Assembly: GCA_039208735.1 (NCBI GenBank)
Contig: JBCCQY010000051.1
Coordinates: 1 to 55,389 of the forward strand
Length of the DNA: 55,389 nucleotides
Origin: Myxococcota bacterium
Lineage (GTDB): Bacteria; Myxococcota_A; UBA796; GCA-2862545
Reading direction: 5' to 3'
Positions 11,067-39,218 of this stretch are shown piece by piece. Each line of letters opens with the position of its first letter. Within the stretch, counting starts at the first letter, position 1. The notes below the pieces were generated by a model that did not search any database, was not told the DNA's origin, and worked only from the letters and a program-made list of their open reading frames with translations. Both the position numbers and the translations under genes were made by a program.

Positions 11067-11864
11067 ATGCCTGAAGGACACACCATCCATCGACTCGCTC
11101 GCGACCACCAGCGCTGGTTCGCTGGCCAGTCCGTCACCGTGGCATCGCCCCAAGGACGCTTCGAGGCGGGAGCCCAAGCCCTGTCCGGCCGCACCCTGCG
11201 CGGCGTCGACGCCTACGGCAAGCACCTGTTCTACGACTTCGTTCGGGGGCCTATCCTTCACATCCATCTGGGGTTGTTCGGGAGGTTCCGCATGCGGAAG
11301 CGGCCCGCGCCGCAACGGGGCGCGCCAAGGATGGTTCTCGGCAACGACGAACGAGAGGTCCGCCTGTCGGGCCCTACGGCCTGTGAGGTTCTCACACGGG
11401 CTGACGCCAACGCCATCATGGCCCGACTTGGCCCTGATCCACTGCGTCCTCGCGCTTCGGGCAAGCGGTTTGTCGACACGGTTTGCCGTCGCAAGCGCCA
11501 AGCCGGAGCCTTGTTGCTCGATCAGTCCGTGGTGGCCGGCATCGGCAATGTCTACCGGTCTGAGTTGCTGTTTCGCATCGGGGTGCACCCCGCTACCCCG
11601 GGCCACGCGATTCCGCGCGCGTCGTGGGAGGCGTTGTGGCGCGACACCAAGGCCCTGTTGGCCATCGGGGTCACGCTGAACCGGATCGTGACCGTGGCCC
11701 CCGAAGAACGTGGCCACCGGGGCCCTCGTCAGCTGGTTCGAGGAGAGCGCGTGTATGTGTACCGACGTCGGACTTGCCTGCGCTGCGAGGGTCCCGTCGA
11801 GACCCTCACCATCGGCCAGCGCAAAGCCTACGCCTGCCCCGCCTGTCAGCCGAGGGTCCCATGA
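11067..11864 (+). CDS. nei: Fpg/Nei family DNA glycosylase/AP lyase (endonuclease VIII-like)
   Basis: N-terminal PEGHT catalytic Pro-Glu, GKHLF, HLGLFG, LGPDPL, H2TH LLDQSVVAGIGNVYRSE, zinc finger CLRC...CPAC. Confidence 0.92.
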   Translation: MPEGHTIHRLARDHQRWFAGQSVTVASPQGRFEAGAQALSGRTLRGVDAYGKHLFYDFVRGPILHIHLGLFGRFRMRKRPAPQRGAPRMVLGNDEREVRLSGPTACEVLTRADANAIMARLGPDPLRPRASGKRFVDTVCRRKRQAGALLLDQSVVAGIGNVYRSELLFRIGVHPATPGHAIPRASWEALWRDTKALLAIGVTLNRIVTVAPEERGHRGPRQLVRGERVYVYRRRTCLRCEGPVETLTIGQRKAYACPACQPRVP

Positions 11865-13351
11865 GCGTTCAGGTGGTCTGGCTCAAGCGCGACCTGCGTC
11901 TCACCGACCATCTTCCGCTCGTGGAGGCGGCGAAGCGGGGGCCGGTGGCGTTGCTGTATGTCTATGAGCCTGATTTGTGGGCCGAGCCTGAGTTTGACGG
12001 TTCGCACCTAGGGTTCATCGGAGAGTGCCTCGATGCGATGGACGAAGCGTTGGCGCCCTTGGGGACGCGCGTGGTGCGCTGCGTCGGACGTCTACGGGTC
12101 GTGCTCGACGAACTAAGAGCATTCTGGGCCGATCAGGGAGGCTTGGGCGGCCTGTTCAGCCATCAAGAGACTGGTGGATTGTGGACCTATGCGCGGGACC
12201 GTCGGGTGGGCCGGTGGTGTCGCAACCACGGCGTGCCCTGGTCCGAGTTCGTGCAAGACGGAGTTGAGCGCGGGCCTTCGCAGCGCGATGGGTGGGCGTC
12301 TCGGTGGAAGCGCTTCATGCAGCAGCCCCTGGCTCCCGAGGCCACGTGGCAGCCCGCGCCGCTGCCGCCTCGCGATGCCGTGACAGACACCTTTGAGGGG
12401 CTTTGCAAGTCCCTCGGCATGGTCCCGACCTCCATCGTTGAGCGCCAACCGGGCGGAGCCTCGGTTGCCGAAGCGTGGCTCGACAGCTTCCTCCGCAAGC
12501 GCGTCGTGGACTACGCCAAAGGCATGTCCTCGCCGGTCACTGCGTGGGAGGCGTGCTCGCGCCTGTCGCCCTACCTCGCGTGGGGCGCATTGAGTCAGAA
12601 GCAAGTGCTACACAGGCTCGAAGCCTTCAAGCGGGGGCGGCCGAAGTTCAGGGAGGGCTACGAGGCGTTCCAGAGCCGACTCGCTTGGCGAAGCCACTTT
12701 ATCCAAAAGCTTGAAGACGAACCCGAGATGGAGGTGCGAAGCCTCGATCCGGCCGTCGACCGTGTTCGCCCGGACCGCGGCCTGGACTTGCCTGCGCTCG
12801 AGGCCTGGATGAAAGGCGAAACCGGCTATCCGCTCGTCGATGCGTGCATGCGTGCCCTCGCGCGAACAGGCTGGATCAACTTTCGGATGCGCGCGATGGT
12901 CGTGTCGTTTTCGAGCTATCACCTTTGGCAACCCTGGCCGACTCCGGCCAAACGACTCGCCCGCCACTTCCTGGATTTTGAACCGGGGATTCACTATCCC
13001 CAGTTCCAGATGCAATCCGGTACGACGGGCATCAACGCGCTACGCATCTATGACCCGGTGAAGCAGGTGCGTGACCAAGATCCCGATGGCCAGTTCATTC
13101 GGCAGTGGGTTCCCGAGTTAGCGCGCGTGCCCGTGCAACACCTCGCCGAACCCCATCGCATGTCGGGCATTGAGCAGGCCGAAGCAGGCTGCCGCATCGG
13201 CGTCGAGTACCCCGCTCCGATCGTCGAAAACGTGCCGTCCATCGTGAAGGCCCGTCGGATCATCGAGAGTGTGCGTCGTCGGCCCGAAAGCCGAGCCCGG
13301 TCCAGAGACGTTCACCGTCGCCACGGGTCTCGTCGAGGCCGTCGCCGTTGA
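11861..13351 (+). CDS. Photolyase/cryptochrome family flavoprotein
   Basis: VVWLKRDLRLTDH, SRLSPYLAWG, GETGYPLVDACMR, WINFRMRAM, DFEPGIHYPQFQMQSGTTGIN, DPDGQFIRQWVPEL. ATG at 11861 overlaps the nei stop (ATGA). Confidence 0.92.
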   Translation: MSVQVVWLKRDLRLTDHLPLVEAAKRGPVALLYVYEPDLWAEPEFDGSHLGFIGECLDAMDEALAPLGTRVVRCVGRLRVVLDELRAFWADQGGLGGLFSHQETGGLWTYARDRRVGRWCRNHGVPWSEFVQDGVERGPSQRDGWASRWKRFMQQPLAPEATWQPAPLPPRDAVTDTFEGLCKSLGMVPTSIVERQPGGASVAEAWLDSFLRKRVVDYAKGMSSPVTAWEACSRLSPYLAWGALSQKQVLHRLEAFKRGRPKFREGYEAFQSRLAWRSHFIQKLEDEPEMEVRSLDPAVDRVRPDRGLDLPALEAWMKGETGYPLVDACMRALARTGWINFRMRAMVVSFSSYHLWQPWPTPAKRLARHFLDFEPGIHYPQFQMQSGTTGINALRIYDPVKQVRDQDPDGQFIRQWVPELARVPVQHLAEPHRMSGIEQAEAGCRIGVEYPAPIVENVPSIVKARRIIESVRRRPESRARSRDVHRRHGSRRGRRR

Positions 13352-13360
13352 GAGGAAGGA

Positions 13361-13747
13361 ATGATGACCGAGTGGGAGCGCACCTTCGAAGTCTTGGTGC
13401 CCGTCGAGGCTTTGGAGCGTGCGGCAGACCGGTGGGCCGAAGGGCGGGCGCTGCTCCTCAATGCCAACAAGCCGGGCTATTCAGAGCGCTTCACCATCGA
13501 TTCGGGCCAGTATGAACTGTTGGTCGACGCCATCTTGCGTTCGTCCGAGACGCTAGCCAACGACCGAGGCGAGGTCAGGCTCAAGGACATCGTGGCGACG
13601 GTGCAACTCGAGTTGCAAGACCATCCGAAGTTCCCGGGCGGACGACTGACGAACTACGTGCGCTACGTGAAGGTTGATCTTGAAGCCAGGGGCTACTTGC
13701 GTCGGGTAGACGGCTCGGGTCCACAGAGGTTGCGCCGAAGGCCGTAG
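13361..13747 (+). CDS. Small hypothetical protein, DUF6958-like (probable winged-helix)
   Basis: RBS GAGGAAGGA; FPGG...YVRYVKVDLEARG...PQRLR resembles the recalled DUF6958 motif. Confidence 0.6.
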   Translation: MMTEWERTFEVLVPVEALERAADRWAEGRALLLNANKPGYSERFTIDSGQYELLVDAILRSSETLANDRGEVRLKDIVATVQLELQDHPKFPGGRLTNYVRYVKVDLEARGYLRRVDGSGPQRLRRRP

Positions 13748-14382
13748 TCACCCCTCAAATAGCTTCAGGATGCCGTGGTCGTCGATGTGGGGCAAGGTCG
13801 GGAAGCGCGTCTGGAGGGCGGGTGAGGCGTTGCCCATCACGAAGGGGTGGCCGACCGCTTCGAGCATCGGCAGGTCGCCGCTCGAGTCACCCACCGCCGC
13901 ACAGTCGGTTGGGTCGAAGCCGAGCGACGCGCACACCCGCACGATGGCGGTGCCCTTGTCGACGCCTCGCTTGGTGAGGGTCACGAAGTGCAGCCCCGGC
14001 AATGCGTCGCTCGTAGCGCTTGCCGCATACAGCGCGGACGGCGTGGCGTCCTCCAGCTGGGCGACACGCTGTGGTGTGTCGACGATCCACTGGGCCTTCA
14101 CGATGGGCGCGGAACCCGACGTCGCCAGAGCGTGGAGGTCGGCGGTGACGCCAGGAACGCCCAGCATTTGGACGTGTTGCGTGTGAGGCAGTGCGGGCCT
14201 TGGGGGCCGATGCGCTGGGCGATGACGGATGCGATGCCCCCCGACGGGCGGCCCGTGCAGACCGACAGCACCAGGCCGCTGTCGCGTGCCTTGTCGAGCG
14301 CAGACCAGACCTCCGGCGCGACTTCGCCCGTATGTCCGACGAGAGTTCCGTCGAGATCAAGGAAAGTAGCAGGGTAATGCAT
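13748..14382 (-). pseudogene. Cof-type HAD-IIB hydrolase, frameshifted and apparently internally deleted
   Basis: Motif I FLDLDGTL and CTGR lie in one frame (ATG 14382, RBS AGGAG); GVDKG and motif IV GDSSGDLPML...MGNA lie in another. Frame switch at about 14170-14195; combined length about 210 aa. Confidence 0.8.
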
Positions 14383-14429
14383 GGGTTCTCCTGATTCACT
14401 CGCAGGTCGGGCTTGTCGTGCATGAAAAG

Positions 14430-14466
14430 ATGAATACATTCACTTTTAGAAAGTGAACGGATTCAT
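14430..14466. promoter_or_regulatory. Tandem palindromic operator, probably the TetR autoregulatory site
   Basis: ATGAAT-ACA-TTCACTTT-TAG-AAAGTGAA-CGG-ATTCAT: AT-rich dyad containing two TGAA-N4-TTCA sites, ending 2 nt before the TetR ATG. Confidence 0.75.
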
Positions 14467-14468
14467 TT

Positions 14469-15146
14469 ATGAAGATTCCCACGTCTCCCAAGGGTCGCGC
14501 GACCCGGTCGCGTATCCTCAACGCCGCTTTGGCGTGCTTTGCCAGTGCGGGATTCGAACCCACGACGATCAAGGACATCGCCCAGGCGGCCGAGGTTTCG
14601 ACGGGCCTGATCTACCGCTACTTTCCGAGCAAGGATGCATTACTCCTCGGCTTTTACGAGCAGATGTCCGAGGAACTTGCCCTACAGGCGGAGAGTTTGC
14701 CCCGAGGCCGGTTGGGCATTCGGTTCAAAGCCTTGGTGGAACATCGGCTCGAGCGGCTCGGTCCGTACCGCGACGCCATGCAGAAGCTGGTGGGTCTGGC
14801 GCTTGACCCGGCATCGTCTGTGGGGGTGTTGTCGCCGATGACCGCCCGCATCCGGGAGCGAAATGCGGCGACCCACCGCTCCATCGTCGAGGGAGCCATC
14901 GACGTTTCATCGTCGGCGGTTCCGGGTTTGCCAGCGCTGCTCTACGCCGTCGACCTGTTGCTCCTGCTCGCGTGGGTGCAGGACCCAACGCCCGACCAAC
15001 GGGCCACCCACCGGCTCCTCGACTGGATCGCCTCCTCGGCCGGGTTCTTGCCCACCGCGATGTTGCTGCCCCCTGTGCAATCCGGCCTGCGCGAGCTGGG
15101 CCCGTTGATGGCTGAACTTCTTTCATTGCCCAAGGACGAATCATGA
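14469..15146 (+). CDS. TetR/AcrR family transcriptional regulator
   Basis: HTH TRSRILNAALACFASAGFEPTTIKDIAQAAEVSTGLIYRYFPSKDALL. Confidence 0.95.
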   Translation: MKIPTSPKGRATRSRILNAALACFASAGFEPTTIKDIAQAAEVSTGLIYRYFPSKDALLLGFYEQMSEELALQAESLPRGRLGIRFKALVEHRLERLGPYRDAMQKLVGLALDPASSVGVLSPMTARIRERNAATHRSIVEGAIDVSSSAVPGLPALLYAVDLLLLLAWVQDPTPDQRATHRLLDWIASSAGFLPTAMLLPPVQSGLRELGPLMAELLSLPKDES

Positions 15147-15802
15147 AGACCGTTTTCCAGGCCCTCGCGGCAGGTGCTGAGGCCTATGCAGACCTCGACG
15201 TGTTTCGAGCCGTGCGTGATGATCGCATCCCGGTCGATGCCTTTCCCTCGTTTTTCGTCGAACAGGCGATGGCCGCACGCTGGTTCCAAGACTTCATCTG
15301 GGCGGGCACAGCGATTGAGGCAGGTCCGTTGGCGGCGTTCGCAGCCGCGCATCGTCGTCGCGACTCGGGCCACTACCGCTGGTCCGAACGGGATCTGGCT
15401 CGCTTCGGCCTGCCTGCGCTCGACCTCGACGCCGCCTTTGCGCTCGACCGACTCGACACCCGCATCCAACTGGCCCGCATCCTGGCGCTCTTTCACGAGG
15501 CGACGACCGAGATGCGCTTGGTTGTGTTGCTCGCGCTTGAGCGGGCGGGCGACATCACGTTGTCGACGCTAAACGGCTACGTCCACCGCCACGGCCTTGC
15601 AGAACGCACGCACTACCTGGGAGATGCCCACGTTGCGGTCGAAGAAGACCAAGCCGCACGAATTGCCGAGGCGCTAGGGCCCGTCCTCGCGTCGTCGGAC
15701 CCTCAGCTCCTCGAGACGGTGCGCATCACGTTCGACGCGTTGTCGAGGATGTTCGCCGATGGTGGCTCCCGGCACTGGAGCCGCTGGATGGAGGCGGCGT
15801 GA
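15143..15802 (+). CDS. Heme-oxygenase-like (HDO/TenA-PqqC-CADD fold) putative diiron protein
   Basis: All-helical 219 aa with HRRRDSGHYRW...DL, LALERAG and HYLGDAHVAVEEDQ, matching the spacing of HO-like metal-ligand motifs; ATGA-coupled to tetR. Confidence 0.6.
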   Translation: MKTVFQALAAGAEAYADLDVFRAVRDDRIPVDAFPSFFVEQAMAARWFQDFIWAGTAIEAGPLAAFAAAHRRRDSGHYRWSERDLARFGLPALDLDAAFALDRLDTRIQLARILALFHEATTEMRLVVLLALERAGDITLSTLNGYVHRHGLAERTHYLGDAHVAVEEDQAARIAEALGPVLASSDPQLLETVRITFDALSRMFADGGSRHWSRWMEAA

Positions 15803-16512
15803 CGCCGGACGTGGACACCGTCTTCGACGAAGTGCGTGAACTGGCCAAGATCGTGGGGGTGGCCGTCGACGAGGCTGTGCTGTCCCGCCTGGCTCCCCAT
15901 GCCGCGACCTATGCGGAGTTCACCGTGAGCCCTCATGCAATCGAGCTGATCGTGTCCGACGAGCCTCGGAAGGTGTGCGAGACGGCGCGAGCCTTGGGCA
16001 CGTCGAACCCTGCGCTTGCCGCCTTTGACGCTTGCATTGCTGCACTGTCGCCTCGCATGGTGGGCCTCAAGGTGCCGTTTCCCCGTCATGGCGAAGGTTC
16101 GCCGACGCTGTATGTCCGGCTGCTCATGCCGCTCGACGAAGGCTTGTCGTTTCTGCAGTCCCTCGTTCCCATCGACGACCTTCGGCTTCGACTCGCTCAC
16201 AACGCAGTCCTCTATGGCTTGGCGTTCATGGGCGAGCCGCTCATCGTGAAGACCTACACGCTGTGTGATGATGGGTTTGAGAGCTTCCGACTGGATGCGC
16301 GCGGGCTTCGACCCGAACGCAAGGCCTATCGCGCGTCGGCCACCGTCGAGCCTGCCACCGGGGCGTGGGGCCAGGTGGTGGCCGCGTTGCGCAAACGCGG
16401 GCGGCTCCGGGCGGATCATGTCGCGACCCTCGAAGTGGGAGACTCCCTCGTCGAGCCCAAGCTCTACTTCGAACGGATCGGAGCCGTGCCCACCGACTGG
16501 TCTGCCCGATGA
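15799..16512 (+). CDS. Hypothetical protein, putative ABBA/PT-barrel (aromatic prenyltransferase-like) fold
   Basis: GTGA-coupled with RBS GGAGG; five apparent beta-hairpins with TLY, KTY, KAY and KLY strands; N-terminal helix resembles NphB-type starts. Fold assignment is inference. Confidence 0.45.
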   Translation: MTPDVDTVFDEVRELAKIVGVAVDEAVLSRLAPHAATYAEFTVSPHAIELIVSDEPRKVCETARALGTSNPALAAFDACIAALSPRMVGLKVPFPRHGEGSPTLYVRLLMPLDEGLSFLQSLVPIDDLRLRLAHNAVLYGLAFMGEPLIVKTYTLCDDGFESFRLDARGLRPERKAYRASATVEPATGAWGQVVAALRKRGRLRADHVATLEVGDSLVEPKLYFERIGAVPTDWSAR

Positions 16513-17360
16513 ACACGTTGTGGGCCTATGTCGCGTGGATGCGGCCAGCGGGGCTTGCCGTCACGTTCGTCTGGGTGTTCACCGGCTGGGCGGCCTCCCC
16601 GCGTCATCCCACCACCTTCGAGGGTGTGCTGACCGATATGATGTGGCTCCTTGGCGTGAACGGGCTCCTCTTGTGGAGCGGCACCAATGCCATCAACGGC
16701 GCGGAAGACGACGATGATGGTCCGGTCAACCTGCTCACCACGCCTCCGCCGAAACCTCGGTACCTGGGCCCGGTTGGCTACGGACTACTCGGCTTGGCGA
16801 GCGTAGCCGCGCTCACGCGAGGCCCCACGGCGGCCGCACTCGTCGCAGTCGCCGCCGGGTTGGGCTGCGTTTACTCGGTTCGCGGGATGCCGTGGCCGCG
16901 GGGCAAAGACATCGTCGGGGTCGACATCGCCATCAACGCGCTCGGATGCGGTCTGGGATCGGTGCTGCTTGGCTGGGCGAGTACGGGAATGCCGTTGAAT
17001 GGCGAGGTGGTGTGGGTGGGGCTCGCGTTCTCGGTGGCCGTGTTTGGTGGGTTCCCCACCTCGCAGATTTTCCAGCTTGGAGATGGCCATCGGAATTGGA
17101 CGGCCGCGGTGGGTCCACGACGGGTCCTACAGTTGGGAACTCTGCTGTTTCTGCTCCACATTGCCATGTTGGCGCCACGGGGACCGTGGTCGGGTGGGCC
17201 GAGCCTTGGGATGGCGGTGTGGGTCGGGACGACGCTGATGGCAGCCGTGCACTCGCTGTGGTGGTCGCAGACCCCCCACACCGACGCCTACCGCCGCATG
17301 CAGCGGCAGCTTGGTTTGCTCATTGTCGGGCAGCTGGCGTGGTCGCTCGCCCAACTCTAG
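16509..17360 (+). CDS. UbiA family membrane prenyltransferase
   Basis: Multi-TM; early MRP, Asp-rich NAINGAEDDDDG, YS....PRGK motif; ATG 16509 overlaps the previous stop (ATGA). Confidence 0.8.
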   Translation: MNTLWAYVAWMRPAGLAVTFVWVFTGWAASPRHPTTFEGVLTDMMWLLGVNGLLLWSGTNAINGAEDDDDGPVNLLTTPPPKPRYLGPVGYGLLGLASVAALTRGPTAAALVAVAAGLGCVYSVRGMPWPRGKDIVGVDIAINALGCGLGSVLLGWASTGMPLNGEVVWVGLAFSVAVFGGFPTSQIFQLGDGHRNWTAAVGPRRVLQLGTLLFLLHIAMLAPRGPWSGGPSLGMAVWVGTTLMAAVHSLWWSQTPHTDAYRRMQRQLGLLIVGQLAWSLAQL

Positions 17361-18624
17361 GCACGATCCAGGCGTTCGATCGCAACGTTGCCAGAGATTG
17401 CGTCAGGTCCACGTCAGGCCGAATCAAGCGCTGCCGAGGGTGGCCGTTGAGGCTTGCCCAAGCGTCGGCGAACACGGCAACGTCCCGACCTTCCGCGGCA
17501 TGGCGCTTCGCCAGATGAAGGGCGTAGTCGCGAATCATGTCGGGCTGGGTGCGCATATGCTGATGCTGCAGGGGGGTAAGTTCGGCCGAGGGATAGGCGC
17601 GCCACACGCGGCCGGTATTGCGCTCGACCACGCGATAATCCACGAGGCCAGTCTTCTCGTTGAGCAGAACGCGCCAGCCGAATCGGTACCCCTCCTCCGT
17701 CCATGCAACATCGTTGCTGAGGAACCAGGCGCGTCCAGGAAACAGTGCGATCGTCGCCATGCAAGCCAGCCAGATCGTCGCTCCCCGGCGTGAGATCGGG
17801 TCGGCGACGACGGTCGTAGCCTGGGGTAGGTCAAGCCAGGATCGGGGCCACGACGGAGAGAGCAGCACCGTTGCGGCGATGACCATCAACCAGGGGAAGA
17901 TGCCGATAGGAAACAGCACGCCGACTGCGATGTGAAAGCCTAGAAGCAGCGCCAAGCCAACGTTTCGGGTGTGCGGTGCCCACAGCAGAAAGGGAATGGT
18001 CAGGTCGTACGCTGCGCCGGACCAGCTCATGAGCCAGGCCGTAGGGTCCCAAGCGATCCACGGCCCCACCATGGGCCAGCCGGCTCGGGCTTGGAGCCAG
18101 GTGAGAAGGGGCTCGGCGCGAAAGAGCCAGTCTGGATTCAGCTTCGCAAGTCCGGCCCACACATACACGGTGGCGATCTCGATGCGGAATGCGGTGATGA
18201 CCCAGCGGGGCAAGGTGGGACCGCCGAACCGGGCGTGGGCGGCCGGTGTGACGAGTAGGGTGACGCCGAGCATCGTGAACAACACGTAGTGGTTGAGGTA
18301 GAGCGTCTTGTCGAGCAGTTCGACATACACAAAGCTGCCGAGCCACAGCCCCAACCAGACCCGAACGTGGCGGCCCCATGCAATGCCGAGCCCCGCCAAC
18401 GCCTGGGCCCCAAACAGTGCGTAGAGCCCCCACGTCGGCGGCATCACCGCCCAAGACACCCAAGCAAAGTGGAACGAGGGGTCAACCAGCAAGGTCTCGA
18501 CCCAACCCAGGGCGACGAAGCGAAGGGCTGCGAACGTCGCGAGGAGCCCAAAGCCAATGCGAAAGGCCGCGAGGCTCGCCGGATCCGTTGGGCGCTGGAG
18601 GTCGCGACGCAGACCGTCGATCAA
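17320..18624 (-). CDS. HTTM domain / vitamin-K-dependent gamma-carboxylase-like membrane protein
   Basis: DPASLAAFRIGFG, DKTLYLNHY, YVWAGLAKLNPDWL, IGIFPW, WTEEGYRFGWRVLL, QPDMI, SLNG...QRLI; TTG start directly follows the upstream stop. Confidence 0.9.
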   Translation of the reverse strand: MIDGLRRDLQRPTDPASLAAFRIGFGLLATFAALRFVALGWVETLLVDPSFHFAWVSWAVMPPTWGLYALFGAQALAGLGIAWGRHVRVWLGLWLGSFVYVELLDKTLYLNHYVLFTMLGVTLLVTPAAHARFGGPTLPRWVITAFRIEIATVYVWAGLAKLNPDWLFRAEPLLTWLQARAGWPMVGPWIAWDPTAWLMSWSGAAYDLTIPFLLWAPHTRNVGLALLLGFHIAVGVLFPIGIFPWLMVIAATVLLSPSWPRSWLDLPQATTVVADPISRRGATIWLACMATIALFPGRAWFLSNDVAWTEEGYRFGWRVLLNEKTGLVDYRVVERNTGRVWRAYPSAELTPLQHQHMRTQPDMIRDYALHLAKRHAAEGRDVAVFADAWASLNGHPRQRLIRPDVDLTQSLATLRSNAWIVPRVGRATTPAARQ

Positions 18625-19641
18625 TCAATCACCGTCGTTGTCGTTGAACGTGATGGTGACAGAGAGGTTCTGGGCGAGGTCGACTTGAATCGCAACCTGC
18701 AGGGTGCGTAGGACTTCCTGGGCCCGAACCACGATTTCGGGTTGCACAACAAGCGTTTCAATGAGGGGTTCTGGAACTTCGCCCAGGCGTTCCTCAACGG
18801 TGGCGACGGTTTGGTCGAGATCGGCGACCAAGGCTTCGTCCGTGACGAGTGTGCGAACGGTGCTCCAAACCTCGCTAACGCCGGCCAACGCGTCTCGAGC
18901 GTCGGCGAGGGAACGCCCGCTAAAGCGGGACTCGAGAAGTGTAGGATCGACGGTCCCGCCGTTGTCGTCGCCGAGCGGTTTGCCGAGCTTGGTCGAGCGA
19001 ATGTTCTCAACCGTGAAGGCCATCCGGTTGACCCACTCGTCGAGCACGTCCTGCTCGGTCTGGTAGGGCCGCTCCGAGGGGGTGGTCAGGCGGGGCGTCC
19101 ACGGCTCACGCCAGAGTTCTGCAAGTTCGGCCGCGTTCGCCGCCACATCTCCGGTGGCCCCGGCCAAGGTCTGACACCGGCGATCGTCCGCCATGTAGGC
19201 GTCGAGGGTCTTGTCTCCTTGGCTCCAAAGCAGCGCTTCGACGACCGGCAACCCGCGAAGTGTGGCCCCGCGCGACTGGAACGAGTCGGCGTCAACGGGT
19301 TCGGTGCCCGCAACGAGGGCTTCGATGTCTTCGACATTGACCGGCCAGCGGTCGAGCTTGGGACCCAGGCGTTCAGGGAGTTCCTCGACGGGGCCGAACT
19401 TCACAAGTTCGGTTTCCTTCCATGGCTTACGAGCGTCCCACCATGCGGTGCGCACCGCCTGCAGGCCGTTCGCATCGACCGTGCCGCAAAGGTCGGTCGC
19501 GGCTTGGGCCAGGTTTGCCGTTTCGTTGGCGAACGCGTCGTACCGCGACTGGGTGAAGCGGGTCGCCAACGTGTTGAGGGCTGGCGCAAGATCGATCGAC
19601 TCGGGGGTCATGCAACCGATCCACCAAACAAAGGCGATCAC
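18625..19641 (-). CDS. Imelysin family (peptidase M75-like) lipoprotein lacking the HxxE His
   Basis: GTG 19641 with GGAGG, overlapping the upstream stop; WIGC lipobox-like; FGP, RGLPVVEALLW, KLGKPLG, ESRFS, FNDNDGD C-terminus. Confidence 0.85.
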   Translation of the reverse strand: MIAFVWWIGCMTPESIDLAPALNTLATRFTQSRYDAFANETANLAQAATDLCGTVDANGLQAVRTAWWDARKPWKETELVKFGPVEELPERLGPKLDRWPVNVEDIEALVAGTEPVDADSFQSRGATLRGLPVVEALLWSQGDKTLDAYMADDRRCQTLAGATGDVAANAAELAELWREPWTPRLTTPSERPYQTEQDVLDEWVNRMAFTVENIRSTKLGKPLGDDNGGTVDPTLLESRFSGRSLADARDALAGVSEVWSTVRTLVTDEALVADLDQTVATVEERLGEVPEPLIETLVVQPEIVVRAQEVLRTLQVAIQVDLAQNLSVTITFNDNDGD

Positions 19642-20978
19642 AAGTCCTCCACAAACGCGAGGAGTTCGGTGCGTTCGTCGGCCGTGAGCATCAAGAACGC
19701 GTCGCGAGCGGCTGCGGCTTCGCCCCCGTGCCACAGGATGGCTTCTTCGAGGCTTCGGGCTCGTCCGTCATGCAAGAAGCGCGTGTGGGCCCCTACGTCT
19801 TCAATGAAGCCAAGCCCCCACAGAGGCGGAGTCTGCCATTCGCTGCCCGACGCGCTGCCGAGTGGAGCGTTGTCGGCCAGTTCCGGTCCCATGTCGTGCA
19901 GCAAGAGGTCGGTGTAGGGCCAGATCACTTGGGATGCGAGGGCCGGGAGTGCGGCTTCATCCGCTGTTTCATGGCTCGGGACGTGGCAGCCGGTGCACCC
20001 TGCCGCGTCAAAGTGTGCTTGGCCGCGACGGATGGTCCGATCGTCCGCCGCGCGACGCACCGGGGGCGCCAGGGTGCGAGAGTAGGTGACCACCACATCG
20101 AAGATGCGCGCTTCGACCTCTTCGGGATCGACAGGCTCCGCCTCGGCGCACTCGGGTTGGGCTGCCGTGCAGTCGTCGGTGGACCGAAGCGGACTCGTGA
20201 GGCCCATGTCGCCTGCGAAGGCCCCCGCCGTCTGCTCGGCGACATCGGGCGCATCGCCCTTCCAGCCGAATCGGCCGATGCGCATTCCCGCGTTGGTGTC
20301 CAGCCACTGAATTCGGCCCGAAATCCCGTCACCGTCAGTATCTTCGGGATCGGCGAGGGCCATCAAGCGCTCCTCGGGAATCGCTTCGAGCAGGCCAAGG
20401 CCGATCACATGAGGAGCGACCCTGGGTGAAAGTACGGTTCCTTCCGTCAGGGGCCCGTACGCAAGCTCGGTCAGCACGTAGGTGGGGGCGGCCAATTCGT
20501 AGCGTGTGCCGTCGGCGTATTGGCCTTCGATGGGCGTGGTTTCGATGACCGGAATCGCCTCGGGAGGTAGGTCCGACGTGGCCTGATCTTGGATTTGGGC
20601 CCCGTAGACCTCGTCGGGCGGAGAGACCCGCAACAGGAGCCCCACAAAGGGACCCTGCCCGTCTTCGGGGGGCGCCCCTTTGCCGTCCCGGAAGTGGCAC
20701 GCCGAACAGGACCGGGCATTGAAGAGCGGTCCCAGACCGTCCCGGGCGGTGGTGCTTGCGGGAGCTTCGACCCAGGCTTGGTTGAAGAACCCATTGCCCG
20801 AGAAGAAGTCCATCTCGGCCTCTGGCGACAGGTTGGCCGCGGGGGCTTTGAAGGCGTTGTTGCCGAGCAGCTGCACGTTGGTCGTCTGACCTCCCGGAAA
20901 CCACTGGCGGGTGTCGAAGTCGTCCGCACAACCCGTCAGGGCCACGGCGGTGATTCCGATGAGGCGCAGGCTCGGCAT
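19638..20978 (-). CDS. Di-heme oxidoreductase (DHOR) family c-type cytochrome lipoprotein
   Basis: Lipobox LTGC; heme motifs CSACH and CTGCH; DGLGPLFN, GLGLLEAI, DGDGISG, GRFGWK, YTDLLLHDMG, WQTPPLWG, LHDGRAR, AILWHGGEA. Confidence 0.92.
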   Translation of the reverse strand: MPSLRLIGITAVALTGCADDFDTRQWFPGGQTTNVQLLGNNAFKAPAANLSPEAEMDFFSGNGFFNQAWVEAPASTTARDGLGPLFNARSCSACHFRDGKGAPPEDGQGPFVGLLLRVSPPDEVYGAQIQDQATSDLPPEAIPVIETTPIEGQYADGTRYELAAPTYVLTELAYGPLTEGTVLSPRVAPHVIGLGLLEAIPEERLMALADPEDTDGDGISGRIQWLDTNAGMRIGRFGWKGDAPDVAEQTAGAFAGDMGLTSPLRSTDDCTAAQPECAEAEPVDPEEVEARIFDVVVTYSRTLAPPVRRAADDRTIRRGQAHFDAAGCTGCHVPSHETADEAALPALASQVIWPYTDLLLHDMGPELADNAPLGSASGSEWQTPPLWGLGFIEDVGAHTRFLHDGRARSLEEAILWHGGEAAAARDAFLMLTADERTELLAFVEDL

Positions 20979-20983
20979 AACCA

Positions 20984-22111
20984 CTACTCCGGGATCTCGG
21001 GGGTGAGTTCGAGAAGGGCGAACGCGTCGGACAACAGGTCTTCGGTGGTCCGAAGGCTGGTGACTAGCGCGGCTACGCGGGCATTGCCTTCCGATCCCGG
21101 GGCAATTTCCTGGTCGTAGGGCGGCTGCAACGCATTGGCGAGATCGAGGCTCTCTTGGATCTGCGCGTCGAGTTCGCTGGCCAGATCGCTGTCCAACCGC
21201 TCGACCACGTCGCGCACGCCGGTGCCTGCGATGGCCTCGTAGGTGCCCGTCCACACGTTCAGAATGCCCTGGACATCCTGAATCATGTCGCGGTGGGTGT
21301 TGTCGGAGAAGCAGCTGTGCTCCTCTTCCTGGTCCCCTGCGTCAAGCGAGGCCTGCAGGCGTTCGCCGCCGGTCTCGAAGCCCGCAAGCACGATCATGCC
21401 AGTAAGGATGTCTTCGAACGAGCCCTCGGGATCTCCCTCAAAGCCCGTGCGGTAGGCCGCCTCGGGTGTCCAGGCGTCGTGGACCTGGGTGAGGTGCTGG
21501 ATGATCAGGTCGCCGGTGACGGTGAGGTACAGGCCACGGCGGTCCTGGTTGGCCGCGGTGCCCGACCCGTCTGTGACGTAGTCCGTGGCGGGCCGTTCTC
21601 CAGGTCCGGTTTCGGAAAGGTCCTGTCCCCAGAGCAAGAACTCGACCGCGTGGTAGCCCGTCGCGATGTTCTTCTCACCGCCCGCCTCGTTGAGGCCCTC
21701 GAGGGTCGCCCCGTCGATGGTCTCGGTTCCGTTGACGATGCCGGCATCCGGATCGCCAACGACGTAGTCGATGTAGTTTTCGTCGAGCGGCCAGGCGTTC
21801 AACAGCCCTTCGGGCCCGTCGGTCGGGTTGTCGATGGGGCCGTCATAGAACCGGTACACCTCGGTCTGCAGGTAGGGCTCGCGACTATCGAGCCACGCCT
21901 GCTGGGCTGCGGTGAGGTTGGCCGCCGAAGGGTCGTCGACGAGGGCCTGAAGGGCAGCATCGAGCGTCTCCGCGGTCGAGATCGAGTCGGCGTACGACGC
22001 CTCGGCGATCTGGGCGTAGGTGGCGACCGCATCGCTCGTGTTGCCAGGAAACGTCCCTCCGCATGCGCCAAGCATGGCAAACGAAAGGGAAAGGGAAAGC
22101 CGCGAATTCAT
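20984..22111 (-). CDS. Imelysin family iron-regulated lipoprotein (IrpA/IcmP/LruB-like)
   Basis: ATG 22111 with GGAG RBS; lipobox LGAC; NAWPLDENYIDY, TGYHAVEFLLWGQD (GxHxxE), EEEHSCFSDNTH; strongly acidic. Confidence 0.92.
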   Translation of the reverse strand: MNSRLSLSLSFAMLGACGGTFPGNTSDAVATYAQIAEASYADSISTAETLDAALQALVDDPSAANLTAAQQAWLDSREPYLQTEVYRFYDGPIDNPTDGPEGLLNAWPLDENYIDYVVGDPDAGIVNGTETIDGATLEGLNEAGGEKNIATGYHAVEFLLWGQDLSETGPGERPATDYVTDGSGTAANQDRRGLYLTVTGDLIIQHLTQVHDAWTPEAAYRTGFEGDPEGSFEDILTGMIVLAGFETGGERLQASLDAGDQEEEHSCFSDNTHRDMIQDVQGILNVWTGTYEAIAGTGVRDVVERLDSDLASELDAQIQESLDLANALQPPYDQEIAPGSEGNARVAALVTSLRTTEDLLSDAFALLELTPEIPE

Positions 22112-22128
22112 AGAGGAGCTCCTGCAGA

Positions 22129-22149
22129 TGAAAATGACATTCATTTTCA
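22129..22149. promoter_or_regulatory. Fur-box-like operator upstream of the imelysin operon
   Basis: Perfect 9-3-9 dyad TGAAAATGA-CAT-TCATTTTCA; the central 19 nt match GATAATGATAATCATTATC at 15/19 by manual count; 18-38 nt upstream of the start codon. Confidence 0.85.
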
Positions 22150-22211
22150 CGCTCACCATACGGGAGCGCGCAAGTCACTGCAACGCTGGTCAAACGAATG
22201 GGTCATCGGGG

Positions 22212-24614
22212 CTATGCTTGCCGAACGTGTTGGTCCGAGAGAATGCGGCCTGCCATCGCCATGCCGGAAAGCAAGGCCTCTTCGACCCCTCCGCCGACGA
22301 GCGCGTCACCGCATACGCCGATGCGGCCATCGTCCGAAAGCAGGCAGTCCACACCTACGGGCGTTGCTACCCGGGCGAACCGCCAACGATGCGCCGAGGT
22401 GTACACGACGTGCGAGGCTTGAACGCCAAACGTCTCGCTCAGAATCGACCCTAAGGCAGCCGCAACCTCTTCCTTCGACTGTTCAAGGTGGTTGGTGGTC
22501 CACTCGGGTGTGGCATGAACCGTCCACGCGGGAACGTCAGCGCGTCGACCGGGTTTCGTGTGTTCACGGGCCACGAAGGCCAAGGGGTGGTCGACGAGGG
22601 AGGCGGCCACGAAGTCGACAGGAGGCTCCTCGGAAAGCTGGGTGAGGAGCGCCCACACCGGGGTGGTCACCACGCCTTCAAGGCGAGCCACGAGGGCGGG
22701 GTCGGGTACCAACGGAATCGCCTGGGGGGTGGGCACGGCCACGACGACGACATCGAAGGGGCCGATCGATTCCGTCTCGGTTCGAATCGAACAGGTTTCG
22801 CCCTCGCGCCGCACTTCGGTCACCCGGGTGCCGAGCTGTACGGCGAGGTCGCGATGGAGGTGCTTGAGGAGGTGGCTCATGCCTGGTGTGCCCACGAACT
22901 GGGGCAAGGCGTTGGGATCGGCTTCGAATTGGCCGTCGGACCACGTCCCGAACGCGCCCGTCCATCGTTCGATGACGCCACGCTGGCGCCAAGAACGCGC
23001 ATAGCGGCCCACGCGTTTGTCGCGGATCGTGAATGCGGGGGTGCCGTGATCGAAGGTGGGGCCGTCGGTTCGCCGGGTGGAGCAGCGACCGCCCGCGCCG
23101 CGTCCTTTGTCGAACACCGTGACCTCGAGCCCATGGTCGTACAGGGTTCGCGCACACATCGCCCCGGCGGGGCCAGCTCCCACGACCGCCACGCGCAGCG
23201 AACCGTAGGGCGAACGGGACGTATACGAGAGGTAAGCCGGCACATCGAGGCGCCTCGCGTGGTGGTCGAGGGGGCGAGGACGCACCTTGCCGAGGATGGG
23301 GATTTCCGGATTAAACGGGCGGTCGAAGAGGCCGAGTGCCCACATCAATCCCCCGACCGAGGAGGGGTCCCGTCCGTCGAGCGAATAACGATTGTTGAGG
23401 TCGAACAGGGTGCGTGCGGCGACCTCGGGGCTCTCCGTCCACAACGGAATCGCTTTTGCCCAGGTCATCCGCACATTGTTGTGCAACTCGCCGTGCCGCA
23501 GGTAGTGCAGCTGGGCAGCGTCCCAAAGGTCATCGCCGGATTGCCCCCGCTGCAGCGACTCGAGGTCCAACACCTCACGTGGGTCTCGGGCATGCGCCTG
23601 AAGCGTTTGGCGCGCCCATGCGGGCAGTGCATCGAGGGACTCATGGGCGGTGTGGTGGCGGCACCAGTGATGGGCGAGTTCCCGCCACACAATCAGCTCG
23701 TCAAGGTACTTGTCGGCGCCTGCTCCTCCACGGGCTGCGGACTCGCGGGCGAGTCGGGTGGGGGCCACCATGCCGAAGTGCAGGTACGCCGACATGCGCG
23801 ACACACCGTCCTTCAGCGCGTTGTTGCGAAGCTTCGCGTAGGACCCGATGCGTTTGAGGAACCGGTTCCATCGGGCGTACCCCGCGACGGAACCGCCTTG
23901 GGTGTGGGGCACGGGCCCTACGCTGTGGTCGATGGCGCACGAGGCGACCAGGTCCACGCGGTTCGTCGTCGTCAGATCGATGGGCTCGAACGGCAGGTCC
24001 ACGTCATCAGCCCCTCGCCGCGTAGCGGCGATGACGTCGGCTCCAACCTCTTCCCAAGGCAAACCGATACGGGCATCCAGTTCGTCTTCGATGGCGTCTC
24101 GAAACTTGAAGGCCCGCGAATGCCGGCCCTCCACGAGTCGCGCGGGAACCACGTTGGCGGTGTCGACCGCCCACACCGGCGTCTCGGTGGCCTGGGCGAG
24201 GCCATGCATCCAGCGCCGCAGCGGCTCAATGGGGAGGTCTTCGGTAAGGACTGCCACCGCCTGGTCCGCCAGCTCGGGCAGCCACCTCGGCCGATGCCCG
24301 GGCCGCTCGACGTGCAGGCGGTAGGCGATGCCTCGTTCGGCAAGCTGAGCTGCGACATCCCAGGCCCCTTCGAGGATGAAGTGGTGGATGCGTGCCGAAG
24401 CAAAACGGTAGCGCTCGGTGAGGCCCTGAACGACCAAGAACGGCACATCCAATGCCGCCGCGAGCTGCAAACCGGCGTCGAGGGCCGGATTTTCGAACCC
24501 TCGAAGCCCCACCCGCATCCAGTACAACACGAATGCCCCATCCCCGACGGGAGCCTGGTTTACGCGAGTCACCCGCTCCGACAGGTGCGGGGGCAAACGG
24601 CTCGGCACGGACAC
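22212..24614 (-). CDS. Class II CPD photolyase-like domain fused to a renalase-like FAD/NAD(P) oxidoreductase
   Basis: N-terminal VLYWM...ENPAL, SRMSAYLHFG, YLDELIVWREL, HNNVRMTWAK, DGRDP, FDRP; C-terminal GAGPAG, DKGRGAGGR.STRR, FDHG, HRWRFA, CGD...VEEALLSG; single uninterrupted frame. Confidence 0.88.
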   Translation of the reverse strand: MSVPSRLPPHLSERVTRVNQAPVGDGAFVLYWMRVGLRGFENPALDAGLQLAAALDVPFLVVQGLTERYRFASARIHHFILEGAWDVAAQLAERGIAYRLHVERPGHRPRWLPELADQAVAVLTEDLPIEPLRRWMHGLAQATETPVWAVDTANVVPARLVEGRHSRAFKFRDAIEDELDARIGLPWEEVGADVIAATRRGADDVDLPFEPIDLTTTNRVDLVASCAIDHSVGPVPHTQGGSVAGYARWNRFLKRIGSYAKLRNNALKDGVSRMSAYLHFGMVAPTRLARESAARGGAGADKYLDELIVWRELAHHWCRHHTAHESLDALPAWARQTLQAHARDPREVLDLESLQRGQSGDDLWDAAQLHYLRHGELHNNVRMTWAKAIPLWTESPEVAARTLFDLNNRYSLDGRDPSSVGGLMWALGLFDRPFNPEIPILGKVRPRPLDHHARRLDVPAYLSYTSRSPYGSLRVAVVGAGPAGAMCARTLYDHGLEVTVFDKGRGAGGRCSTRRTDGPTFDHGTPAFTIRDKRVGRYARSWRQRGVIERWTGAFGTWSDGQFEADPNALPQFVGTPGMSHLLKHLHRDLAVQLGTRVTEVRREGETCSIRTETESIGPFDVVVVAVPTPQAIPLVPDPALVARLEGVVTTPVWALLTQLSEEPPVDFVAASLVDHPLAFVAREHTKPGRRADVPAWTVHATPEWTTNHLEQSKEEVAAALGSILSETFGVQASHVVYTSAHRWRFARVATPVGVDCLLSDDGRIGVCGDALVGGGVEEALLSGMAMAGRILSDQHVRQA

Positions 24615-36800: not shown

Positions 36801-37832
36801 ACGCGCGAGGAACTTCGAGCCGCATGGTCGACGGTCACGCACCAGCTTCAACGGCGCCGCGACGACGCCACCTGTGCCGACGAAGAGCACCGCATGCGCC
36901 TCGAAGAGGTTCCGCTCGTCGTGGAATGGCCCGAGGACGCGCCACGGCCCAGCGCATTGGTGGGCTTGGTGGCAGCAGCGGATGACCGACCCAAAGTGGG
37001 GATTTTGCGCGAGCAAGGGACCAACGGGCACCGCGAGATGGCGGTCGCGTTCTTGCGAGCCGGGTTTCATGCGGTCGACCTGCACATGTCCGACCTGATG
37101 AACGGCGATCGCACGCTCGACGACCTGCAGGGCCTTGCATGGTGTGGAGGGTTCTCGTTTGGCGACGTGCTGGGCGCGGGCGAAGGCTGGGCCAAGTCGA
37201 TCTTGCATCAGCCACGCCTCAAAGAGGCCTTTGCGCGATTCTTTGCTCGCGACGATGCGTTTTCACTTGGGGTGTGCAACGGCTGCCAAGCCCTGTCGGC
37301 GCTCCATCCGATCCTCGAAGGGGCAGAGCAATGGCCTGCTTTCGTTACGAATCGGTCGGAACGGTTCGAAGCGAGGGTGTCGGTCCTGCGTATCGAAGAT
37401 TCGCCGTCCATCCTCTTCAAGGGCCTCGTGGGGGCTCGTTTGCCTGTGCCCATTGCGCATGGGGAAGGTCGGGCGCGCTTCCGGGATGACGCGAGTGCCC
37501 ACTCCATGCCGGGCGAGTTGGTGGTGGCTCGCTACGTCGACCACGAGGGCAACGTGGCGGTGCGGTATCCCCAAAACCCCAATGGCTCTGAGGCCGGCAT
37601 GGCCGCGCTCACGACCCCCGATGGCCGCACCACCGTGCTCATGCCCCACCCCGAGCGGGCCATCCGTTGGCCCATGCTTTCGTGGTGCCCGCCAGATTGG
37701 AAAGCTGAGTCGCTCGATAGCCCCTGGCTGACCGTGTTTACCAACGCCTACGCTTGGGTGACAGGCTCACGACCGGCGCCGCCCGAAGTCGGCGGGGACG
37801 TTGACGAGGCTGGTGACGAGGAAGCCGGGTAG
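33852..37832 (+). CDS. purL: Phosphoribosylformylglycinamidine synthase (large single-chain type)
   Basis: [75 protein letters not shown]. Confidence 0.98.
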
Positions 37833-39074: not shown

Positions 39075-39218
39075 GGCCCACTCTACGGCGGTTCGTGGCA
39101 GCTCGGTAAAAGCGATCGTCGCACGCGAGCCGTTCGCGTCCGATTGGCATAGGGGCCCCCCCGGGCCGGACGCGCCGGGGTGATCCACCCTTGCGGGACC
39201 CGAGAATCCGTCAGGGGG

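Follow-up and report, generated by a model that had tools for sequence, protein, structure and literature searches.

Prenylation of tryptophan followed by oxidation of its side chain has a precedent in Streptomyces SCO7467/SCO7468 (5-DMAIAN), which like IptA (6-DMAI-3-carbaldehyde) joins an ABBA prenyltransferase to one side-chain-trimming oxidase (PMC3617294). Of the heme-oxygenase-like iron enzymes (HDOs) only some dozen have been characterised, most of their reactions being unprecedented (PMC13108848); AetD, a nitrile synthase (PDB 8TWN/8JI2), and SktA, a skatole synthase, are the ones that matter here. The operon described below lies in a stretch of 55,389 nucleotides from a Myxococcota bacterium (the window). 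It would follow the same logic as these clusters and is, as they are, devoid of a PKS, NRPS or terpene-synthase core. The reading we favour, to which we would give a little less than an even chance, is that its enzymes prenylate an aromatic amino acid, in all likelihood tryptophan, and trim its side chain; the substrate, the order of steps and the product are what we infer from the enzymes.

Positions 14430–17360 hold four plus-strand ORFs, for TetR, gene 2 (HDO), gene 3 (barrel) and gene 4 (UbiA) (Table 1). The first-pass annotation had described these genes as coupled by 4-nt overlaps, and ATGA, GTGA and ATGA are indeed found at 15143, 15799 and 16509. One contig of run X1 spans 13300–17800 with zero differences, X1 being possibly the source of this DNA and hence not independent; all four genes are partly covered by close-strain pieces from other runs. 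The enzyme genes of the unit total ~2.2 kb. GC3 of the four genes (0.76–0.80) is within the 5–95% range of the genome (0.66–0.81), so that a recent horizontal arrival of the operon is unsupported. A search for a sigma-70-like promoter at the operon found none, and terminator-like matches there were at chance level.

Table 1. Features of the operon (positions in the window).
Feature	Positions	Strand	Length	Remarks
Operator-like palindrome, copy 1	14430-14443	none		RTGAA-N4-TTCAY; likely TetR site (predicted)
Operator-like palindrome, copy 2	14453-14466	none		ends 2 nt 5' of TetR start codon
TetR-family repressor (P0001)	14469-15146	+	225 aa	PF00440; PDB 3c07
Heme-oxygenase-like iron enzyme (HDO, P0002)	15143-15802	+	219 aa	AetD-related
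Compact ABBA prenyltransferase-fold (PT-barrel) protein (P0050)	15799-16512	+	237 aa	GTG start
Divergent UbiA-superfamily membrane protein (P0004)	16509-17360	+	283 aa	

The first gene product has an N-terminal TetR domain (helix-turn-helix, E 1.6e-17, 63.5 bits against a cut-off of 24) and matches its PDB relative over the full length (E 2.4e-18); two orthologues match TetR_C_23. Upstream of it lies an inverted repeat (14430–14446/14450–14466, 17-nt arms, 88% complementary) that ranks first in the region. When random 145-nt pieces of the window were scored, one in 300 reached its value, and no shuffle out of 300 did. The strong palindromic operator proposed at first survives as this inverted repeat but is better read as a tandem pair of RTGAA-N4-TTCAY sites beginning at 14430 and 14453. 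This motif, which was derived from the same loci in which it was counted, lies 5' of TetR in 24/24 loci having an upstream TetR and preceding DNA and in 0/21 other loci; two copies are present in 13 of the 24. At four loci (L006, L026, L028 and L045) a MarR gene stands in place of TetR. It is likely, judging from these predicted operator-like sites, that TetR autoregulates the operon; it would bind the two copies and come off in response to the pathway product or to a ligand related to it.

The HDO-barrel-UbiA set recurs in more than 20 other DNA records, mostly myxobacterial, usually with a repressor gene in the lead. Directly 3' of the HDO lies the barrel in 30/30 loci with at least 500 nt downstream (27/27 without three duplicate pairs), while UbiA is present in 23/26 loci with at least 1100 nt downstream (21/23 without duplicates). 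Co-occurrence in other genomes is thus conserved in the non-redundant loci, and the three-enzyme set first proposed stands as regards HDO and barrel, which are constant; UbiA proved dispensable in 2/23 loci, and the core is therefore HDO plus barrel. A converse search with the barrel profile matched 5 of 401 genomes, all five in the cassette and on the same DNA as five loci of the HDO search. Trees of the three enzyme genes share clades, with distance correlations of 0.46–0.59 that none of 2000 permutations reached. Beyond the cassette no conserved neighbours were seen among the 80 of 106 candidate flanking ORFs scanned at 22 loci: a Zn-ADH recurred at three loci and a GNAT and an epimerase at two each, at differing positions, which speaks against a larger gene cluster. 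None of ten clusters looked up gave a cultured carrier.

One might suppose from the regulatory layout that the operon serves an inducible modification or detoxification, in which TetR senses an aromatic compound from outside. The HDO would begin by oxidising this compound, and the oxidised product would be prenylated by the two transferases and so neutralised or sequestered. The autoregulated TetR layout, the conserved operator-like site and the exchange for MarR would suit such a role, as would the patchy spread of the close HDO family, found in only one of 401 genomes of the phylum (the window's own) and in 0/20 of its own family. So would the lack of a conserved exporter among the flanking ORFs scanned, but a lipophilic product would not need one. 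Against it, the HDOs and PT-barrel enzymes characterised so far serve biosynthesis and the tightly conserved active sites of the three enzymes suggest a single fixed substrate, so that we consider this quite improbable.

The AF2 model of gene 2 (pLDDT 96.2) is a seven-helix bundle with the fold of the HDO superfamily, which confirms the heme-oxygenase-like assignment. SznF, UndA, BesC and CADD had been named as examples of such enzymes; the nearest HDO is AetD, the sole significant PDB match of the profile (E 7.5e-14) and the first structural match (Z 21.0, rmsd 2.7, 208 aligned), followed by CADD (Z 18.3), FlcD (17.1) and BesC (16.8), with the metal-free TenA and PqqC further down. Gene 2 and AetD/SktA share the fold (TM 0.78–0.80) at 22–24% identity; their partners differ, being two prenyltransferase-fold proteins here and halogenases, a P450 or an FMO there.

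When the iron ligands are taken as listed in PMC11611611, gene 2 keeps five of the six of AetD (D74, H77, E133, H163 and E167, each in 98/98 relatives). The sixth, H179 of AetD, is Q170 in gene 2 and Gln in 98/98 relatives, and is His in 7/7 distant AetD-clade proteins. The family thus departs from the canonical 3-His/3-carboxylate set, and the earlier designation as a diiron protein is upheld by five ligands and put in doubt by the last. The HDO review lists 3H/3C, 3H/4C and mononuclear ligand sets, and the words Gln and glutamine are not used in it (PMC13108848). Since AetD requires all its iron ligands, H179 included (the Ala mutants are dead), gene 2 might be thought to bind one metal or none and to assist the barrel in a substrate-binding, mononuclear or redox-neutral role; mononuclear HDOs are known, arising by loss of helix-3 ligands, and metal-free HO folds are among the lower structural matches. 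But the other Fe2 ligands (D74, E133 and E167) are invariant, and the equally invariant Gln looks like selection for a ligand rather than decay, which makes this the least probable of the readings that we weighed.

As in AetD and SktA, auxiliary helix 2 has F48 instead of a Glu ligand, and the Tyr that holds the substrate carboxylate is kept: Y158 and F48, conserved in 98/98 relatives, correspond to AetD Y167 and F48, which lie by the amino-acid part of the substrate. The hydrophobic indole clamp of AetD/SktA (F44/I146) is missing from the family, the position of F44 being taken by Ala, Thr or Val (71, 19 and 8 of 98; Ala in gene 2) and that of I146 by T139 (98/98). The position of AetD I41 is mostly Gln, and Glu40 is new and invariant. 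With these replacements tryptophan stays tentative as the HDO substrate. From its residues we would claim that gene 2 works like AetD and SktA, and do not claim its membership of the tryptophan-cleaving group.

Gene 3 was placed by fold prediction alone, searches of Pfam, NCBIfam and a PDB profile having given no significant match. Its AF2 model (pLDDT 93.6) is a ten-stranded antiparallel barrel with outer helices, which bears out the PT-barrel fold first suggested. Foldseek returned NphB, AmbP3 and FamD1 (E 5e-8 to 3e-7), and in VIA the top 19 rows were all ABBA chains (Z 14.1–18.1; next 7.2). In the Atlas, no ABBA family came out of the search by structure, and the search by features gave PTase_Orf2 (0.91) as a lead. 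With AmbP1/AmbP3/FamD1, NphB, CloQ, EpzP and DMATS gene 3 shares the ten-stranded barrel (rmsd 3.0–3.6, 214–229 aligned) and K-x-Y motifs on alternate strands, at an identity of 7–16%. Unlike them it is compact (237 aa against 285–429 for the 19 chains listed), lacks the helices between strands 6 and 7 and has a conserved C-terminal tail.

Among 41 barrel proteins, Y38, E40, K91, Y105, R107, Y139, K151 and Y153 are invariant, and K/R175 (40/41), Y177 (39/41), K221 (39/41) and Y223 (40/41) nearly so; the putative basic/tyrosine-shield set as a whole, R164 included, is conserved at 36–41/41, its equivalence to AuraA being by strand order and not by superposition. Matched in this way, the residues recall DMATS (AuraA), both in its K-x-Y pattern for the diphosphate and tyrosine shield and in its acceptor Glu, and two basic residues of DMATS are replaced by Glu49 and Thr103. 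Gene 3 is not a member of the Trp-DMATS family: PF11991 matched 0/29 barrel members at E 0.1, and HHalign of the barrel family against six myxobacterial DMATS gave a probability of 4% and no direct alignment, the two being joined through a third family only (99.7% and 93.9%). Those relatives of gene 3 that are longer (scanned: 19 of the 41 proteins) proved to be TPR fusions and tell nothing about the chemistry. A strict pattern of the C-terminal tail is found in 31/41 members and in 0/19 TPR fusions; as an idea, we put forward docking on the HDO as a candidate role for this tail.

The same architecture might act on another amino acid (Tyr, His or other polar), giving a prenyl-phenol, a prenyl-imidazole or a similar lipid. 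The polar Q41 and T139 and the invariant E40 of the HDO pocket, in place of hydrophobic indole contacts, would agree with this, and in the HDO tree the family stands apart from the HDOs linked to DMATS, as a clade on a long branch (3.0, support 100/99). The barrel is also matched by ABBA enzymes for His, Tyr or Arg, about 2–4 Z units under the best (FunA 16.4, DMATS1 with Tyr 16.0, DciF 14.1). But tryptophan is the substrate of AetD and of SktA, the two members of the closest HDO clade that have been characterised, distant HDOs of the clade adjoin Trp-DMATS genes in the phylum, and the top barrel match in VIA is the indole prenyltransferase AmbP1, level with NphB. Another amino acid is, in our estimate, unlikely.

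Myxobacteria have a UbiA-superfamily enzyme in AuaA, the aurachin farnesyltransferase. Gene 4 falls under the cut-off of PF01040 (E 6e-4), which two of three orthologues tested exceed; with its Atlas matches (features 0.97, structure TM 0.86) these support the original placing in the UbiA superfamily. A hydropathy scan gave just three segments above threshold, so that the membrane topology of gene 4 rests on the Atlas model. Its fold and the pattern of its first Mg/diphosphate site are common to AfUbiA, MenA and DGGGP synthase, with NxxxDxD where the superfamily has NxxxDxxxD. Gene 4 keeps the first Asp-rich motif with the conserved Tyr-Ser, Arg and Lys: R12, N63, D67, Y122, S123 and K133 (20/20) would fit the residues that AfUbiA requires to bind GPP, as matched by pattern and not by direct alignment. 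The second Asp motif (AfUbiA D198/D202) is absent, being replaced by Q186-I-F-Q189 in 20/20; its loss nearly abolished the activity of E. coli MenA.

UbiA-fold terpene cyclases exist, and one could imagine gene 4 as a cyclase or an enzyme that shapes the prenyl donor, the product then being a cyclised meroterpenoid whose aromatic part is prenylated just once, by the barrel. The invariant Q-I-F-Q might be read in this sense, as might the lack of a strong match to any named UbiA equivalog (best 3.3e-6, no subfamily cut-off being reached). However, no polyprenyl synthase is conserved nearby, and a similar Q-x-F-Q occurs in two inspected sequences of the nearest UbiA sister family in contexts unrelated to the cassette, hence the change is not special to it. 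The neighbours in that family showed no biosynthetic theme in the 69 of 124 candidate ORFs scanned, and the upstream protein common to its loci is neither an HDO nor a barrel. A cyclase is to our mind very improbable.

For the favoured tryptophan-derived product we propose the following order. The soluble PT-barrel, to go by its modelled fold, would prenylate the ring with a prenyl diphosphate as donor. The AetD-like HDO would then hold the prenylated amino acid by its amine and carboxylate and by analogy with AetD/SktA would cut the side chain with O2, leaving a nitrile, an aldehyde or a methyl group. The HDO pocket looks enlarged (AetD F44 being Ala here) and would fit a prenylated ring. Optionally, the membrane UbiA may attach a second, probably longer, prenyl chain, giving a lipid-soluble product.

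More tentative, and rather doubtful as a whole, is the stronger proposition of a stand-alone pathway in which the HDO has an undescribed 2-His/3-carboxylate/1-Gln site and performs a new oxidation of a prenylated amino acid, alongside a barrel shorter than every solved match obtained and a motif-changed UbiA. If true, myxobacteria would make a new class of lipid-soluble metabolites bearing two prenyl groups, one that escapes cluster-finding programs. As one metal ligand is changed in every member, the HDO family offers a ready test of how the chemistry of HDOs depends on the metal ligands. The compact barrel represents an unannotated prenyltransferase-fold family and possibly a small biocatalyst, and the unit, with its ~2.2 kb of enzyme genes, can be expressed directly.

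The same phylum holds a sister cassette. A sample of 401 genomes contains six Trp-DMATS loci that exceed the Pfam cut-off: at five of them an HDO of the AetD clade lies no more than 2 kb away, and at the remaining one DMATS is fused to an HO-like enzyme; at L076–L078, L080 and L081, all myxobacterial, Trp-DMATS and the AetD-like HDO are accompanied by an FAD oxidase. These point to a wider, apparently unreported myxobacterial theme of prenyltransferases paired with HO-like iron enzymes. The DMATS-type cassette, itself uncharacterised, might be where the indiacens come from, prenyl-indoles that have two Sandaracinus producers and for which a literature search found no gene cluster; it fits them better than the HDO-barrel-UbiA cassette, for which we set indiacen aside as product. 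Common to both cassettes is an ABBA-fold prenyltransferase partnered by an HDO of the AetD clade, but the sister has a canonical DMATS (E 1.7e-86 to 6-DMATS), an HDO with all three His intact, and a cytokinin-dehydrogenase-like oxidase where this operon has UbiA.

Literature searches found no characterised pathway with an HDO, barrel and UbiA gene set, in keeping with the original remark that the combination was not recognised from any characterised cluster. Genes for Trp-DMATS, flavin monooxygenase and tryptophanase are absent from the cassette, and none recurs next to it among the flanking ORFs scanned. The operon may work like the actinomycete prenyl-indole clusters and is not one of them. 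Where SCO7467/SCO7468 and its type employ a canonical Trp-DMATS and a flavin monooxygenase, the present operon has a compact non-DMATS barrel, an HDO and a UbiA, and is best read as a variant of the prenyl-indole pathway type built from three uncharacterised subfamilies.

The four overlapping reading frames of the cassette described by the first-pass annotation, and their three 4-nt overlaps, were found in the window sequence at the positions claimed. The palindromic operator proposed ahead of them is indeed an inverted repeat (a score reached by one of 300 random window pieces and none of 300 shuffles), but, set against related loci, it resolves into a 14-nt palindrome, RTGAA-N4-TTCAY, that occurs twice. 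This motif precedes the TetR gene in 24 of the 24 loci where TetR lies upstream and has sequence ahead of it (21 once three duplicate pairs are removed), occurring twice in 13 of the 24, and is found in none of the 21 remaining loci; since it was derived from these same loci the 24/24 score is no blind test. There are 29 matches across the whole 9.4-Mb genome, and a similar site lies ahead of a full-length TetR paralogue encoded on contig C7. Regulation of the cassette by TetR through this operator-like site is putative. The divergent Cof-type HAD hydrolase gene is likely decayed: it occupies two frames, split near 14100–14170, and is below the usual length. It is not kept beside the cassette at other loci. 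On the other side the convergent HTTM frame and the UbiA 3' end overlap by 41 nt.

Features in the window and at related loci
Feature	Sequence	Position	Strand	Remark
Fpg-like glycosylase with photolyase-family gene	window	11067-13351		
Cof-type HAD hydrolase	window	13748-14382	-	divergent from TetR
14-nt palindromes	window	14430; 14453		start positions
TetR	window	14469-15146	+	
Gene 2, AetD-related heme-oxygenase-like iron enzyme (HDO)	window	15143-15802	+	
Gene 3, compact PT barrel	window	15799-16512	+	
Gene 4, UbiA	window	16509-17360	+	
Imelysin, di-haem oxidoreductase, imelysin, HTTM/vitamin-K-dependent carboxylase-like row	window	17320-22159	-	convergent with cassette
Second photolyase-like domain	window	22212-24614		fused to flavin amine-oxidase-type domain
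Sister UbiA locus	L068 (G000:C15)	35955-39602		
P450	L012	2486-3814		abuts UbiA
Fatty-acid-desaturase-family gene	L017	9263-10531		behind TetR
DMATS cassette	L076	4164-8957		
DMATS cassette	L077	4647-10171		
DMATS cassette	L078	5109-8710		
DMATS cassette	L080	1830-5035		
DMATS cassette	L081	6279-9587		
DMATS-HO fusion	L079	5462-7246	-	595-codon frame; Trp_DMAT 51-306, PF14518 414-581
Tandem AetD-clade HDO paralogues	L082	6311-9026	-	62% identical; prenyltransferase not nearby

Gene 2 has no match in Pfam and a weak one to BesC. Phmmer returned the tryptophan nitrile synthase AetD (E 1.4e-4), which was also the sole match (E 7.5e-14) of a family profile built from 45 of the 46 collected proteins, one fragment being dropped. 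AetD is likewise the best match of the AlphaFold model (pLDDT 96.2) in Foldseek (TM 0.78–0.80) and in VIA-align (Z 21.0, rmsd 2.7, 208 aligned), where CADD ranks second (Z 18.3). The predicted model thus upholds the HO-like fold of the original proposal, whereas its diiron part is qualified by glutamine in place of the sixth AetD iron ligand. The ligands D76, H79, E140, H172, E176 and H179 of AetD, and its substrate contacts Y167, F48, F44 and I146 (excerpts of PMC11611611; PMC10654658), align with D74, H77, E133, H163, E167 and Q170, and with Y158, F48, A44 and T139. Among 98 full-length family members (seven short fragments left out) D74, H77, E133, H163, E167, Y158, F48 and Q170 are each found in 98/98; position 44 is Ala, Thr or Val, 139 is Thr, 41 mostly Gln and 40 always Glu. 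This argues that the amino-acid-binding end is kept, the ring pocket remodelled and one ligand changed. The last His is retained in 7/7 distant AetD-clade proteins of the same phylum, and in a tree with these the gene 2 family forms its own, long-branched clade. Because Ala mutants of the AetD iron ligands are dead (excerpts of PMC10654658), the change would by analogy speak against the putative activity, but the invariance of Gln170 and the other Fe2 ligands would speak for it. Excerpts of a review of HDOs describe 3H/3C, 3H/4C and mononuclear ligand sets and nowhere mention glutamine or Gln (PMC13108848).

Sequence-library searches gave no match for gene 3. Its ten-stranded model (pLDDT 93.6), computed from 29 sequences (27 of the 30 locus ORFs after removal of duplicates, and two others), retrieved NphB, AmbP3 and FamD1 at the top ranks of Foldseek (E 5e-8 to 3e-7) and 19 ABBA prenyltransferases in VIA-align (Z 14.1–18.1; next entry 7.2), a predicted fold which agrees with the PT barrel first suggested. 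Gene 3 encodes 237 aa, below the lengths of all 19 (285–429), and the model is without helices between strands 6 and 7. A full-library profile search collected 127 proteins, which fall into the close family, a sister group fused to TPR repeats and a third group of ~290 aa. The third group bridges the barrel and Trp-DMATS in profile comparisons (99.7% and 93.9%), as against 4% for the two compared directly. Y38, E40, K91, Y105, R107, Y139, K151 and Y153 are invariant in 41 full-length members, and K175, Y177, K221, Y223, S162, R164 and E225 are present in 36–40 of them. A pattern like the K-x-Y pairs, four-Tyr shield and acceptor-binding Glu of DMATS enzymes such as AuraA (excerpts of PMC11696170) recurs here, with putative equivalence by strand order only; two DMATS basic positions seem to be replaced by E49 and T103. 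The literature assigns PT-barrel enzymes to secondary metabolism and sees no relationship between them and UbiA (excerpts of PMC3227686; PMC7839719). The 19 TPR-fused proteins (among P0099–P0126) have C-terminal repeats and retain the Y-x-E and K-x-Y motifs, the conserved tail being missing; one additionally has an EryCIII-like domain match. None of 21 scanned members of the third family (P0135–P0177, alignment A5) has a Pfam match.

PF01040 scores below cut-off in gene 4 of the window and above it in two of three orthologues, which together with its resemblance to UbiA (Atlas 0.97, TM 0.86) supports the earlier assignment. In 20 sequences (the window and, after removal of duplicates, 19 of 21 complete ORFs) R12, N63, D67, Y122, S123 and K133 are invariant, echoing R22, N68, D72, Y139, S140 and K146 of AfUbiA, in which alanine mutants of R22, N68, D72 and K146 abolish GPP binding (excerpts of PMC4106721). 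The second motif, D198/D202, is Q-I-F-Q in gene 4; its loss weakens binding in AfUbiA and nearly abolishes activity in E. coli MenA (same excerpts). A sister UbiA family is repeatedly found behind a conserved unannotated ~250-aa protein (L068, L055–L057, L060 and L061), L055 having a tandem pair of UbiA genes.

Homologs of the three genes do co-occur elsewhere. At the 45 loci that the HDO profile retrieved, 16 of them genomic and 29 metagenomic, the barrel lies directly behind the HDO in 30/30 with enough DNA (27/27 non-redundant) and UbiA is present in 23/26 (21/23 non-redundant), being frameshifted at L007 and upstream at L014; the genomes of L009 and L015, of unstated completeness, have no member of this UbiA family at any other position. 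TetR occurs in 26/37 loci, with MarR in its place in four. A barrel-profile search of 401 genomes of another order gave five matches, all in cassettes already counted and thus no new samples. Several well-supported clades are common to the gene trees of 20 complete cassettes, and the three distance matrices correlate (rho 0.46–0.59), part of which could stem from shared host ancestry alone. Flanks differ at every locus. It is a rare cassette: out of 401 genomes in the phylum sample, the window's own is the single one with the close HDO family. This genome likely belongs to Myxococcota: myxobacterial names are borne by 13 of the 16 genome-derived loci, and the genomes with five cassette loci are recorded as the same phylum; the Janthinobacterium label of L006 could reflect mis-binning. 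A Bacteroidota record, L012, also has the cassette, with a P450 directly behind; both rest on the unpublished genome G404, whose publication needs the depositors' permission. This P450 and the L017 desaturase-family gene are possibly lineage-specific tailoring.

Three distant HDO matches in the phylum sample led to a second cassette. Trp-DMATS exceeds the Pfam cut-off in six of 401 genomes, and in five of these an AetD-clade HDO, with its 3-His/3-carboxylate site intact, lies less than 2 kb away, accompanied by a cytokinin-dehydrogenase-like FAD oxidase. In the sixth a single ORF fuses DMATS to an HO-like domain of another subfamily. That indole prenyltransferases and HO-like enzymes recur together in this phylum is the main ground, by analogy, on which tryptophan is suggested for the window cassette. 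The DMATS cassette is a candidate for making prenyl-indole aldehydes, among them the indiacens, which have a 3-carbaldehyde structure. Indiacens are prenyl indoles from Sandaracinus (excerpts of PMC9306752; PMC4660955); an open-literature search for an indiacen biosynthetic gene cluster using tryptophan found none.

The cassette is thus real, conserved and self-contained, with three uncharacterised enzyme subfamilies predicted to have HO-like, PT-barrel and UbiA folds, and probably serves the biosynthesis of a prenylated amino-acid derivative. We would suggest that the barrel attaches a prenyl group to a free aromatic amino acid, that the HDO cleaves its side chain in the manner of AetD or the skatole synthase SktA, which yield a nitrile and a methyl group, respectively, the latter with release of cyanide and bicarbonate (PMC11869266), and that UbiA may optionally add a second prenyl chain. 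The version in which the amino acid is tryptophan is tentative, at somewhat short of even chances. The product is open to direct testing.

No set of heme oxygenase-like enzyme, prenyltransferase and UbiA was found in the open literature, subscription papers being mostly outside its coverage, nor anything related on myxobacterial prenylated indoles with prenyltransferases. The set is absent among the matches listed for AetD-homologue/prenyltransferase clusters since 2023, though the AetD supplements may place this family in a similarity network, and "prenyl", "myxo" and "UbiA" are absent from the SktA supplement (PMC11869266). Being without the DMATS and the flavin enzyme of the Streptomyces prenyl-indole clusters, as these appear in excerpts of PMC3617294, the cassette is not a member of that group, but it would work like them.
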